Below are positions 32,427 to 36,673 of a DNA stretch of 64,000 nucleotides, piece after piece. Source of the stretch: an uncultured Desulfobacter sp. Its GTDB lineage: Bacteria > Desulfobacterota > Desulfobacteria > Desulfobacterales > Desulfobacteraceae. The notes beneath the pieces are model-generated. The model was given only the letters and a program-made list of their open reading frames with translations, searched no databases and was not told where the DNA came from. Both the position numbers and the translations under genes were made by a program. Positions within the stretch are counted from its first letter, which is position 1, and each line of letters opens with the position of its first letter. The stretch covers positions 3,648,001-3,712,000 of the forward strand of contig OY762069.1 of the NCBI GenBank assembly GCA_963665095.1, written 5' to 3'.

Positions 32427-34867
32427 CTATTTCCAATCCCCGGTCACTTGAAATGCAGCCCAATAAAAAGGATGATTAAATTTTGTATTGGATGATTTCT
32501 GGTTGATGGACATGCCCCGATTTATCAGGTTTTGCGTATCTGTCTGTATGCCTAAAAGGGATAGCTGAGCTAATTGAAGTGCTTTGGTCGGCCGCTGACC
32601 CGTCAACAGGTGTTCATAAAAGTTAATCATCAGCAAGGATGTGGCCTCATCGGAAACCTTCCAGAGAGAGGACATCAAAGCTGGTGTACCCGCATAGAGC
32701 ATACCCCGGGTAAGGCCGACCACCTCATCCCCGACACTGATTTCACCAATTCCGGTTTCACAGGCTGACATAGTGACAAAACGAGCGTTCAGGGCAACTT
32801 TCATTATTTCCCAGGCTTCAAGCCGGCCATCCGTATGATTGTCCCTGGCCAACAGCATTGCACTGCGACTCGGGCTTTGCCGGTTAAACTCACCATGGCA
32901 GGCCAAATGTACAACATCTGCCCGGGGGGCTTGTTCTATAAACGCAGATTCTGTGGCATCCGAACCTGTCAGTATTGTTACTTTGGGATTGCTTTTACCC
33001 TTAAAAAACAGGGCACCTAACTGGTTGGCCTCTTGTGCCGCCCCCGGAAGGGCCCACTGATCCTCCGTCATACCCGGTAGTGTTACCGAAAGATCCGGAT
33101 TTCCAAAAGCCAGAAAGCTGTCAATGGGGCGGCCTGTTCTTTCCCTGCAAAAGGGTAAGATTCCGGCTGCCGGCAGAATTGAAATTTCAGACCGTTCAAT
33201 CAGCCATCCCTGACCGTCATGCAGGGAGGTGAACGGCAGGGTGTGCAATGGCCCGTGGGGAACGATGACCACGCGCCGGGGCAGCCCTTCAGGAAAGGCA
33301 TCCCCGAACAAGGCTTTGTATAGGGCCCGGGCTTTGGGACTGGGATCACCGGTACCGGTGCAGATACTCTTACGAAGCTCAGCAACCATGGCTGAAATTC
33401 TGCGCTCCGGCTGCGCAATGTGATGCACTTGAAGGCCGGAGGTATTGCCCACAAACATCAGCCCCTGATTTTCATTAAGCATAAATTCCACCAGGGTAAC
33501 ATTATCGAAGTAGGGCTTCATCGTGTTCCAGGAGGGGGACTGGGCTGTGACAAAAGAGGCCAGTTCCTTATCACTGGAGGTTAATGCATCCTGGGCGTTT
33601 TGAACACTTCGATTAGCCGCCTCCCGGCTTTCAAGGCTCTTTTTACCACCGTCGGCAAAAACAGATCCAATGGAAGATTTAAATACATTTTCGGTCCGGA
33701 AAGCCAGATAACTGGCCTCCACTTCCTTGTTTTTTCCCAGGGTTTTGCCTTCCAGCAAATCTGCCAGAGCCCGGGCTTTTGATTTTTCAACGATGGCAAA
33801 TGCCTTTTCTATTTCACCATGCATGGCATACCTGATGGCCAATCGTTCATAAGGACGGCCACGGTCTTTTAAAAAATGCCGCTTATAGGAATCTTTCTGC
33901 AAGGCGCTTCGTTCGGTTTCAGCGATGCTGACTGCCTTTTCATAGTGTTCAACAGCCGTTTCAGGCTGTCCCAGATTTTCATAACAATCACCCAGGGCAT
34001 CATGGGCAGTCCATAGGTACTCTCCGCCCAGGGCCGGTGATTGGTGTATGGTTTGGCAATAGGCTTCCAGCTGGGAAGCCGCAGCTTGATAGCTGCCTTC
34101 GAGATAATCTGCATAACCAAAGTAAAATTGTTTTTTGGTTCTGAAATAAAGATTGCTCTCGTTCATTATGCTTCCGGGCACATAAAAGGCTTCTGTGCCG
34201 CCGACAGCCAATATCATGGGAAATGCCACAACCGTCAGGGCAGCCACGCCCGTATCCCCTTTAAAATCTTTTTGATCAATATGTTCTGCGTATTTTCTCA
34301 GCAACCTCGGATCTTTCAGGTGAACGCCAAGGTTCAGCAACCCGGCGTTATAGCCTGGCTTGGCCCACTGCCACTGCTTTTTACTCATGCACCGTTCCAT
34401 CTTCGCCATTGAGATACGGATATCTTCCAGTGCCCTGAAGGTTTTAAGGTCATCGCCATCCAGCAACGATCGCTGCACCATCAGCGGGTGAGCCACCCCA
34501 TAGCTGTAGGAATACCGGCAATCCTCTAGAGTGGGATCGCTGCCATCCGTCATATCCATGGAGTACTCCATGGCTGACAAGGCTGTTTTCAACGCCCTGT
34601 CAAACCGTTCGATTTCACCGGTTTTCAAGGCCGATTCCAGATACGGTGTGATAACTTCCGGCATATTACGAAAATCAATTTGTATTACAATATCCGACCA
34701 GCCCCCTTTCACACTCCTGCTTTCCTGGTCCTTGAGAACATTTTCAATGTGGGCAATGAATGCATCACCGATCAGAAATACTTTTTCATGGTTTCCCAAT
34801 TGTGTATACACCCGCATCAAAGCATCTATCTCCTCTTGCCGCAGCTTTAAGGCCATTTGTTCGGGGG
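32427..34867 (-). pseudogene. TPR-CHAT (caspase-like) lipoprotein, 3' part, interrupted by IS110
   Basis: TPR segments, EKSKARAL, IVPHGPLHTLPF, catalytic HLACHG and MSACETG, HPFYWAAF. Confidence 0.88.
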
Positions 34868-34979
34868 TCACCCATTAAAGGCCGGGTCAAGAGAAAAAAC
34901 ACCTCCCCGTGAAAAAAATTCCTTTTTTTCTTGACCCTCGCACTATTTGTAATTTTTCAAAATCGACAGCTTTTTTCCC

Positions 34980-35285
34980 TGTCCGCGCCTGTTATTTCGT
35001 CGTGTGGTTCACGGAAATGATCCGCACCAGTCACCCATCAGGTTCAAGGCAGATGTGTACCAGGCAAAATGCGTGGTACACGGCCCCTGGTCCGTTCGGA
35101 CCCCAGAAAATCTTCAGTGCCGTACCGTGGCTAATTGTTTGTTTTCAAATCTTATGGTTGTTAACCAACCCCTTACAGGCTCACGGCACAGGCGAATCAG
35201 GATATAAAAAACTGTGTGGCTGCAGCAGTTGCCAATCAAACCTAATGGTTCATACCAACCCCTGAAATGGTTCGCTGCTGCAGCC
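34980..35285 (-). ncRNA. Predicted bridge/seek RNA of the IS110 element
   Basis: Stems GGCTGCAGCAG/CTGCTGCAGCC, GTGCCGT/ACGGCAC and GTGTACCA/TGGTACAC; 8-nt matches to the target flank and to the element end. Boundaries approximate. Confidence 0.7.
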
Positions 35286-35290
35286 TTAAT

Positions 35291-36307
35291 TTACCGGCAA
35301 AAAAGACCTACCTCATCAAAGGGGATCTGATCCCGCATGATATAGTAGGATGCACGGCAAATTTTGTTGCTCAACGCTTTGGTGGCTACAATCCCGTTTC
35401 GTTTGGCATTTTTGCGCTGGAAAAATTTTCTTGCTTCCGGGCAATACCTTTTTGCAAAATTTGCAGCTTCTACATATGCCCAGGCAAGATACTTGTTTCC
35501 GTTTTTTGTATTATTTCTTCCTTTCTTCTTCCCATTGGATATTTTTTCACTTTTAACACAACGGCAATAGGAAGAATAGCATCCTACCTTGGCAAACCGT
35601 TTGATCTCGCCAACCTCAAGCATGATAGTCAGTGCCAGAATATTGCCGACACCCGGTATTGTTTTAAGCATTTCAAAGGCTTTTTTCATTTTAACCTGGG
35701 AAAGCGCCTGTCGTTCAATCGCTTTGATGGAATTACTCAGGTCCTTGATGGTCCTGATCTGAAGTGCTGCCATGAACCCCTGATTTGAATCAAACATTTG
35801 ATGAACCTCAGGTTCCTTCAATTTTTTGATCGCATTACCTGACATTTTTATGCCAAGTTGCCTTGTTACCATGCTTTGTAAACTCAAAATTTGAGTTGTT
35901 CTTTGCTGCACAAACAAAAGTCTTCGGCGTAAAATATCCCGGACAGCTCTTTCTTCCCGAGGATAAATGTAGCCTTCCGGCAGAATGTTTAACCGCCTCA
36001 TGTGTGCGAGCCAGAAGGAGTCCCACTTGTCGTCGGTATACTTGAGCCCTTCGTACTGTTGAATGGCTGACGGGTTGGCCAGATGAACTCTATAGCCGTT
36101 TTCCTCAAGGCCATCAACCAGCCAGTACCAGTTGTAGGTTGATTCTACCACGATACCTTCCAGATTTTGTCTGAACGGTTCCAGAATTTGAAGTACATCC
36201 GGCAAATTATTGTCAAGCCGTTTTCCAAATAACCGTTTGTCATTTTCATCAATGATTCCTACGTAATTATTGCTTGAATGCAAATCAATTCCAGCGTAGA
36301 GTTTCAT
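35291..36307 (-). CDS. IS110-family recombinase/transposase
   Basis: DEDD domain (YAGIDLH, VVES, TDDKWDS), TIPGVG, ISNGK, GNKYL. Confidence 0.95.
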   Translation of the reverse strand: MKLYAGIDLHSSNNYVGIIDENDKRLFGKRLDNNLPDVLQILEPFRQNLEGIVVESTYNWYWLVDGLEENGYRVHLANPSAIQQYEGLKYTDDKWDSFWLAHMRRLNILPEGYIYPREERAVRDILRRRLLFVQQRTTQILSLQSMVTRQLGIKMSGNAIKKLKEPEVHQMFDSNQGFMAALQIRTIKDLSNSIKAIERQALSQVKMKKAFEMLKTIPGVGNILALTIMLEVGEIKRFAKVGCYSSYCRCVKSEKISNGKKKGRNNTKNGNKYLAWAYVEAANFAKRYCPEARKFFQRKNAKRNGIVATKALSNKICRASYYIMRDQIPFDEVGLFCR

Positions 36308-36489
36308 TTGGCACCTCCTAAATCCAAAGTGTTCTTGTTGAACTGGTACTATAGCAATCGTTGCTATAGTTAGGGAGGTGTCACTTTTTTTTCTAATTTG
36401 CGAGGACCTGCCATCATACGATTCTATGAAAAATATCTGTGATGACAGGTAGCTTTCGTTCCTGCTTTCGCCTGGCCTTTATATGATTA

Positions 36490-36673
36490 TCAAACCTTTT
36501 TCCATCTTTTTGGCCAGGGTCAAAGCCTCGGTCCATTTTCCGCTCATGGCCAATTCCTGGCTCATGGCTTTTAGCCGCTGTCCACGCATTTGCCCCCCGG
36601 CGCAGCCGGTAATAAGCATCAGGGCGGCCCCAAAAGAGGCTATTGAAAACAGGCAGTATCTAAAATTGTTCAT
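36490..36673 (-). pseudogene. TPR-CHAT lipoprotein, 5' part
   Basis: Lipoprotein signal LMLITG-C; joins in frame to 34867 (KGLTPEQM) when the IS is removed. Confidence 0.78.

Follow-up and report, generated by a model that had tools for sequence, protein, structure and literature searches.

What would a mobile element do with a bridge RNA that has two target-binding loops instead of one? The question is raised by an insertion sequence in a stretch of 64,000 nucleotides from an uncultured Desulfobacter sp. (this whole stretch is called the window here). A sequence-only reading had noticed two tandem target-loop-like modules in the predicted bridge RNA of this element, here called M1 and M2, and had proposed either that they give two specificities or that M2 is a decaying duplicate. 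What the locus carries is a real, conserved variant of the predicted bridge RNA with one site-selecting target loop, which is sometimes duplicated, and one specialised target loop.

The element and its insertion site

The element is of the IS1111 type, intact, and lies on the minus strand of the window (34871-36492; Table 1). Its bounds are confirmed by an empty site in run X14, where 1622 bases are skipped at a joint between 34867 and 36490 (3 letters are ambiguous). A second, identical copy and several fragments are found elsewhere in the same genome, and a comparison of the genome copies gives the junctions AAGGTT-TG-ATAATC and ATGGG-TG-ACCCC. The target of the window element is AGGTT-TG-ACCCC. 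Both identical copies sit at AAGGTT-TG-ACCCC, which is the site-specific insertion around a short shared core that characterises IS110 elements, and distant relatives narrow the core to TG.

The recombinase combines a DEDD RuvC domain with a Tnp domain carrying the catalytic serine, as IS110 proteins do. D8, E55, D93, D96 and S257 are likely the catalytic residues; D8 was read from the GIDLH motif and the other four were placed by alignment to ISCro4. The available text of two papers (PMC11187229; PMC11208160) gives a long right end, sub-terminal repeats and a top-strand-first guide order as IS1111-type traits, and the element has them all: a long noncoding region 3' of the gene (a right end of 420 nt vs. 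a left end of 183 nt), 8-bp sub-terminal inverted repeats (GGCCTTTA / TAAAGGCC), and a top-strand match that precedes the bottom-strand match, GGGGT coming before AGGTT in M1. M2 and the donor loop have the same guide order.

Table 1. Features of the element and its flanks, in window coordinates
Feature	Coordinates	Strand	Composition	Basis
Left target and core (host DNA)	36491..36497	-	AGGTT + TG	Divergence point of the two identical copies; empty site in X14
Left end, 183 nt	36308..36490	-	Right-donor half ATAATC; sub-terminal inverted repeat TAAAGGCC (36481-36474)	Copy comparison
IS110-family recombinase, 338 aa	35291..36307	-		PF01548 and PF02371; NF033542, 178 bits (cut-off 140)
M1, predicted site-selecting target loop	35218..35285	-	GGCTGCAGCAG 35285-35275; AGGGGTTGGT-ATGA-ACCAT-T-AGGTTTGA (AGGTTTGA 35243-35236); CTGCTGCAGCC 35228-35218. 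Guides: top-strand GGGGT 35262-35258, bottom-strand AGGTT 35243-35239; core TG 35238-35237; handshake-like AT 35236-35235	Fold; covariation with insertion sites
M2, second target-matching loop	35117..35190	-	GTGCCGT 35189-35183; AGGGGTTGGT-TAACA-ACCAT-A-AGATTTGA (35152-35145); ACGGCAC 35123-35117. Guides: GGGGT 35172-35168, AGATT 35152-35148; TG 35147-35146; no handshake match	Compensatory stem; own-target match in distant relatives; insert and dinucleotide counts
Predicted donor-binding loop	35030..35116	-	GATTTTC 35112-35106; ATGGG-TG 35038-35032; handshake-like AC 35031-35030	
Predicted helix	35021..35200	-	CTGATTCGC (35200-35192) with GCGGATCA (35028-35021)	RNAalifold, 67 sequences
Right terminus	34871..34890	-	TTGAC; sub-terminal inverted repeat GGCCTTTA (34883-34876); left-donor half ATGGG (34875-34871)	
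Core and right target (host DNA)	34864..34870	-	TG + ACCCC	Copy comparison and empty site

The element splits a TPR-CHAT gene (window 36673-36491 and 34870-32427, minus strand). An open frame of 61 codons with a lipoprotein-like start reaches the left junction, and the CHAT ORF on the far side of the right junction apparently continues its reading frame; the uninterrupted TPR-CHAT site is seen in run X14. An internally deleted copy without the left end lies at G000:C1 4586877-4587776 (+), and the 5' guide of its M2 reads GGGAT. Just inside the right end, TTGAC (window 34890-34886, minus strand) is kept in relatives and could be the -35 box of a circle-junction promoter; against this, the nearest -10-like GATAAT would sit only 15 nt away. 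A sigma-70 promoter scan of 34800-35400 returned no site. The joints listed for DNA contigs, in which rare forms are dropped, included no circle junction, and the RNA runs (X5-X7 and X1) yielded contigs of relatives only.

Three homologous loops

As the sequence-only reading had described, both modules lie on the minus strand, each in its own stem. They sit 3' of the recombinase stop codon, and in our own fold check the 436-nt region forms both hairpins (z = -3.5; none of 100 shuffles was as stable). The module pattern occurs six times in the 6.9-Mb genome and is not due to chance, because every occurrence belongs to a pair inside one of three IS copies. The claim that M2 lacks the YTGG that should follow it needs correcting: the motif is displaced rather than lost. 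TTGG, TTGA or TTAG is found 11-13 nt further on in M2 of 122 of the 131 rows of relatives, where it pairs with GAGCC or GAGTC and shows compensatory changes. The window has TTAG, preceded by an A-rich insert.

Beyond the segment covered by that reading lies a third homologue, the donor loop (35112-35030). All three loops follow a common plan: a CC-bearing motif, the 5' guide, TGG-hairpin-CCA, a 3' guide whose last letters are the TG core, then TGG. As in IS621, the guides of the donor loop covary with the circle junction. For the left-donor guide this is clear (ATGGA with ATGGA in 10/11 rows, ATGGG with ATGGG in 74/77), and for the right-donor guide it is weak, since GAATTT is found only with ATATTC (3/3), yet 13 ATATTC rows keep GATTTT. 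A search of Rfam gave two weak matches below the gathering score and no bridge RNA family.

The consensus fold adds a helix of nine pairs (Table 1), each formed in 55-67 of 67 sequences, that encloses M2 and the donor loop. In a single-sequence fold the same 5' strand pairs with another 3' strand, likewise enclosing both. M2 is hence predicted to share one domain with the donor loop, and M1 to be a free hairpin of seekRNA size outside it. Separately, both target modules are absent from a remnant of a related element (G000:C1, about 3402020-3402490, plus strand). This remnant stops exactly at the donor loop's ATGGG-TG and continues with ACCCC, as if guide DNA had been used as the right end; a matching loose end is present at window 35030 in all four runs compared for joints.

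M1 fits the landing site

To ask which module matches the site, one needs rows in which the two disagree. From 172 loci, 137 had both module types, 131 remained after removal of duplicates, and 95 of these had a clean left flank. In 56 of the 95 the guides differ. With wobble (G-T, U-G) allowed in the scoring, 27 of the 56 discordant sites fit M1 only, one fits M2 only, 15 fit both and 13 fit neither; exact matches number 30 for M1 and 2 for M2. Position by position, among the 63 discordant positions of rows with a single M1, the site agrees with M1 at 51 and with M2 at 8. Across 40 independent pairs on the tree (built with FastTree, with weak deep nodes), the site changes along with M1 at 29 of the 43 positions where M1 differs (one opposite), and along with M2 at 11 of 23 (none opposite). 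The guides of M1 covary with the target as those of the IS621 target loop do.

The idea of M1 and M2 as two equal specificities finds little in these counts to sustain it. The sequence-only reading had suggested asking whether copies insert at both sites, and the genome answers for one of them: both copies with a left end sit at AGGTT, which is exact for M1 and one mismatch from M2. A milder version of the idea, in which M2 is an independent, weak fallback guide for the consensus AGAT(T/C)-TG-ACCCC, seems to us improbable. A full guide pair is kept in M2, in 101 of 131 rows it has AGATT or AGATC as its 5-mer, these letters resemble the ends of REP-associated tyrosine transposase genes, and single loci do fit (M2 alone for L086, an exact M2 match for L042). 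Yet only one of the 56 sites is M2-only, 43 of 116 rows have the same 5-mer in M1 and M2 where divergence would be expected, and M2 is without the handshake that aids IS621 insertion. A genome scan found no free AGATTTGACCCC site in the host, so that the host offers no place where such a fallback could show.

We also considered whether M2 pairs with the invariant donor end, and rejected this, as a constant donor is accompanied by M2 guides that vary with the target. In one genome (L003, L004, L005, L023), three copies are deleted for both target modules and the 5' donor guide and sit at three different fitting sites; a three-module element in that genome could supply RNA in trans.

M2 is old and follows the target

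Were M2 a recent decaying duplicate, as the sequence-only reading had offered, one could point to the window's TTAG in place of TTGG and to GGGAT in place of GGGGT in the deleted genome copy. We consider this extremely improbable, for the following reasons. First, M2 is present in 117 of the 118 loci, among the 172, that have the donor-loop motif: 94 are M1-M2, 22 are M1-M1-M2 (six of these with a degenerate first M1), one has M1 alone and one M2 alone. This count is not deduplicated and includes two rows that are the window genome's own copies. Second, its stem is kept by compensation. In 45 nonredundant sequences 94.6% of the cells pair, against at most 49% in slid controls, and 10 of the 12 pairs of the outer helix have changed on both sides, a score that none of 500 shuffles reaches. 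Third, both modules persist in plasmid relatives with 46-53% and 30-33% protein identity, which have quite different targets. Exactly one target and one donor loop, the IS621 arrangement, is thus not what this clade has, as 116 of the 118 loci carry two or three target modules. The sequence-only reading was right to take both modules for paralogous target-binding loops of the predicted bridge RNA that depart from that layout.

M2 also changes with the target it sits beside, at a slower pace than M1. In 16 loci (the window and relatives of 30-53% identity) the guides of M2 match their own target at 101 of 176 positions, where shuffles give a mean of 64 and a maximum of 87; M1 scores 121 in the same test. 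With one locus per clade M2 still matches at 79 of 143 positions vs. 51 when shuffled; kin are not independent, so the shuffle counts overstate the effect. The distant set keeps three mis-parsed entries (the right target of L265, the M2 guide of L241 and M1 of L267), which count against the reading we favour, and L240, which has no right end, was dropped from the shuffle.

Could M2 instead be a structural or protein-loading arm of the donor domain, with guide-like letters left over from ancestry or copied from M1? Its predicted place inside the donor domain and the rarity with which it explains a site would fit, but we hold this to be quite improbable, because the M2 guides change with unrelated targets across 30-53% identity. 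Wholesale copying from M1 is argued against by the hairpin loops, identical between M1 and M2 in 0 of 116 rows, and by the agreement between the modules, which exceeds shuffles mainly at guide positions -1, -3 and -5. At position -1 the two are equal in 100 of 116 rows (60 when shuffled). To judge from the letters, such a pattern is better explained by selection for target reading by M2 than by wholesale copying, with shared ancestry contributing.

In three more distant loci (L268, 22%; L269, 30%; L271, 26%) no module pair was seen by eye, so any limit to the clade is provisional. Other relatives vary the plan. In four loci with 30-33% identity (L265, L266, L267 and L270) the M1 hairpin is enlarged by a long insert with both guide halves in place. 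L120 has one hybrid module, with the 5' half of M1 and the 3' half of M2, as expected from a deletion between GGGGTTGG repeats, and L057 has M1 only. Viral contigs held no relative by protein or by motif, phage records gave two matches, and a second search of the phylum returned largely the same genomes.

M2 lacks the handshake

For IS621, one paper (PMC11208158) describes base pairing, once the strands have been exchanged, between the partner DNA and two RNA bases that lie 3' of the second guide. Both M1 and the donor loop of the present element can be read in this way. In M1, the dinucleotide after TG equals donor positions +1 and +2 in 14 of 17 mostly distant loci, of which only 4 have a non-AT donor: AG goes with AG and AA with AA in three of these four, two of the three being from one clade. 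The bases after the TG of the donor loop equal target positions +1 and +2 in 13 of 16 loci, with three states (AC, TC and TT). Handshake dinucleotides of the IS621 type are present in both loops and absent from M2, whose dinucleotide equals the donor in none of the 17 loci and, among close rows, is AT in 4 of 131 and AC in 1 of 131. In close relatives the search patterns fix the donor AT, the target A and also the first base of the M1 dinucleotide; with the DNA side fixed, the covariation is tested by the distant set alone. Because the M2 dinucleotide matches neither the donor nor the re-formed target, we describe M2 as having a null handshake, not one optimised for excision.

A duplicated M1 and the targets

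Two specificities from M1 and M2 are mostly unsupported; in relatives they do appear, through a second copy of M1. The guides of the two M1 copies differ in 15 of 15 rows. Elements with two M1 copies form eight separate pure groups on the FastTree tree, several of which may share one origin, and one of them, L095, branches next to the window's own clade as its sister (support 0.99). The first M1 fits the site best in six loci (L025, L063, L127, L129, L133, L157), the second in four (L020, L095, L142, L147), and the site of L149 mismatches both. Genome G403 contains four copies of one element, which differ at 0-1 of 1922 bases; the guides are AGGTT, AGATC and, in M2, AGATT. Two copies sit at AGGTT, fitting the first M1 only. 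The other two sit at AGACC, where the second M1 is best (one wobble, vs. three for the first M1 and two for M2), and the right flank mismatches all guides. These letters are suggestive of an element that uses two site types through its two M1 copies.

What the elements land in may explain why M1 changes. The genomes of several relatives carry the target motif as inverted pairs with a spacing of about 1 kb. Three of five retrieved pairs were scanned for ORFs, and two of them enclose Y1 transposases, which score 79.6 and 83.9 against a model for REP-associated tyrosine transposases (cut-off 80). A GTCAA-type arm lies upstream in 42 of 92 reconstructed sites. The variable ends of REP-associated elements may hence drive the turnover of M1. 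For the window's own host a REP-like target family was considered and rejected (0 free AGGTTTGACCCC, 0 AGATTTGACCCC), and the target motif is not clearly enriched in that genome. As a separate observation, TACTC-TGACCCC occurs 37 times in the G000 genome, far above other 5-mers, and resembles a REP-type repeat; one of these palindromes harbours a related element's left end (C1, about 6041620, minus strand).

What M2 may do

Our preferred reading, to which we give a probability of about 0.47, is a three-loop bridge RNA in which M1 matches insertion sites and M2 is an old, conserved target-matching loop that likely serves excision to the circle. The reasoning leans on IS621, for which one study (PMC13626964) reports that every altered RNA that inserted better excised worse, and that direction was governed by handshake pairing. 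By this analogy, both handshakes would draw recombinase loaded with M1 and the donor loop towards the integrated state. If loaded with M2 and the donor loop instead, the recombinase would still read the flanks and, because one handshake is absent, would oppose excision less, so that the M2 route would ease the trade-off between insertion and excision. M2 would then be under loose, lagging selection to match the flanks that M1 has made: new targets would be gained through mutation or duplication of M1, and M2 would catch up later, first beside the core. Against the excision reading count the null handshake of M2, the 13 of 56 discordant sites that fit neither guide, the one mismatch between the window's M2 and its own flank, and the lack of a circle junction among the listed joints.

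The literature points both ways. For ISEc11, circle formation requires intact target flanks (PMC11187229), and a preprint reports IS621 excision to be independent of target pairing (10.64898/2026.08.31.748434), which would remove the need for an excision loop. More tentatively, we picture a broad IS1111 clade with forward and reverse gears, in which a target loop with a handshake inserts and one without it excises, both with one donor loop, and in which several duplications of the insertion loop have made a small natural guide array through which one element can use two targets.

The main rival keeps M2 in insertion, as a second reader of the same site in a second step. M1, perhaps processed into a short seekRNA, would capture the target and one junction, and the domain of M2 and the donor loop would complete or proofread the other. 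M2 does follow M1's target and is tightly coupled to it beside the core (position -1, above). The accessible text on CazIS110-1 describes a two-step, direct-transfer route with a target-loop-only RNA (10.1101/2025.10.25.684509), and that on IS1111 elements describes a short target-only RNA of 82-96 nt (PMC11187229). Nevertheless, 27 of 56 sites truly mismatch M2 and none of those mismatches M1, so M2 would filter only weakly, and the loss of its handshake is left unexplained. We therefore think this rival unlikely, if still worth keeping in mind.

Relation to known systems

The comparisons below draw on those parts of the cited papers that were accessible. A close likeness is to the IS1111 seekRNA elements ISEc11, ISKpn4, ISPa11 and ISPst6 (Siddiquee 2024, PMC11187229), which share the noncoding region 3' of the gene, the sub-terminal repeats and the guide order; M1 alone (68 nt) is close to their short seekRNA in size. 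Those seekRNAs are described with one target-match pair in 145-170 nt, whereas here two target modules and a donor loop take up about 265 nt, and some relatives add another M1. With IS621 and ISCro4 (Durrant 2024, PMC11208160; Hiraizumi 2024, PMC11208158; PMC13626964) the element shares a DEDD and serine recombinase (E about 4e-7 to both structures, PDB 8wt6 and 9t56), four guide halves around a 2-nt core, and a handshake 3' of the second guide in a loop. These two carry their one target loop and one donor loop in the left end. The present element encodes its RNA in the right end, with the opposite order of guides and a donor loop of the multi-loop kind, and nested with the latter is an additional target loop that has no handshake.

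A likeness to the ISGsu4 / ISGsu5 / ISShfr7 / ISShwo5 group of ISfinder is suggested by L239, 46% identical, which its depositor labels ISGsu4 family and which carries the two modules. The supplements of both 2024 papers list ISGsu4, and the one mention found in running text comes from a paper about cytochrome filaments. A further likeness is to TIGR-Tas arrays (PMC12045711), which have tandem dual-guide units and a related RNA-binding domain, a repeated M1 being a short array of this kind. Unlike TIGR-Tas, the element has a full IS110 recombinase (NF052498 gives 21.7 bits, cut-off 100), a donor loop and mobile ends, and its 2-3 unlike units do not form a long array of like units. For IS1111, the literature mentions donor regions built of several loops, and also a set of 86 models whose structures diverge, and names no second target loop; in the running text of the papers covered, no bridge RNA with two or more target loops is described.

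Implications for the family

How IS110 elements excise with an RNA tuned for insertion is unsettled, and the papers, as far as their text was accessible, disagree on whether a target loop is needed. The clade described here offers a test set up by nature: its two target loops are unlike at the handshake, and each can be altered on its own. If our reading is true, direction could be set by the choice of loop. Methods for guide prediction that assume one target loop may misread the clade. The reprogramming of guides seen among the relatives is natural only, and the duplicated M1 indicates that a single bridge RNA can probably accommodate several target guides, which would make it a natural scaffold for multiplex insertion.
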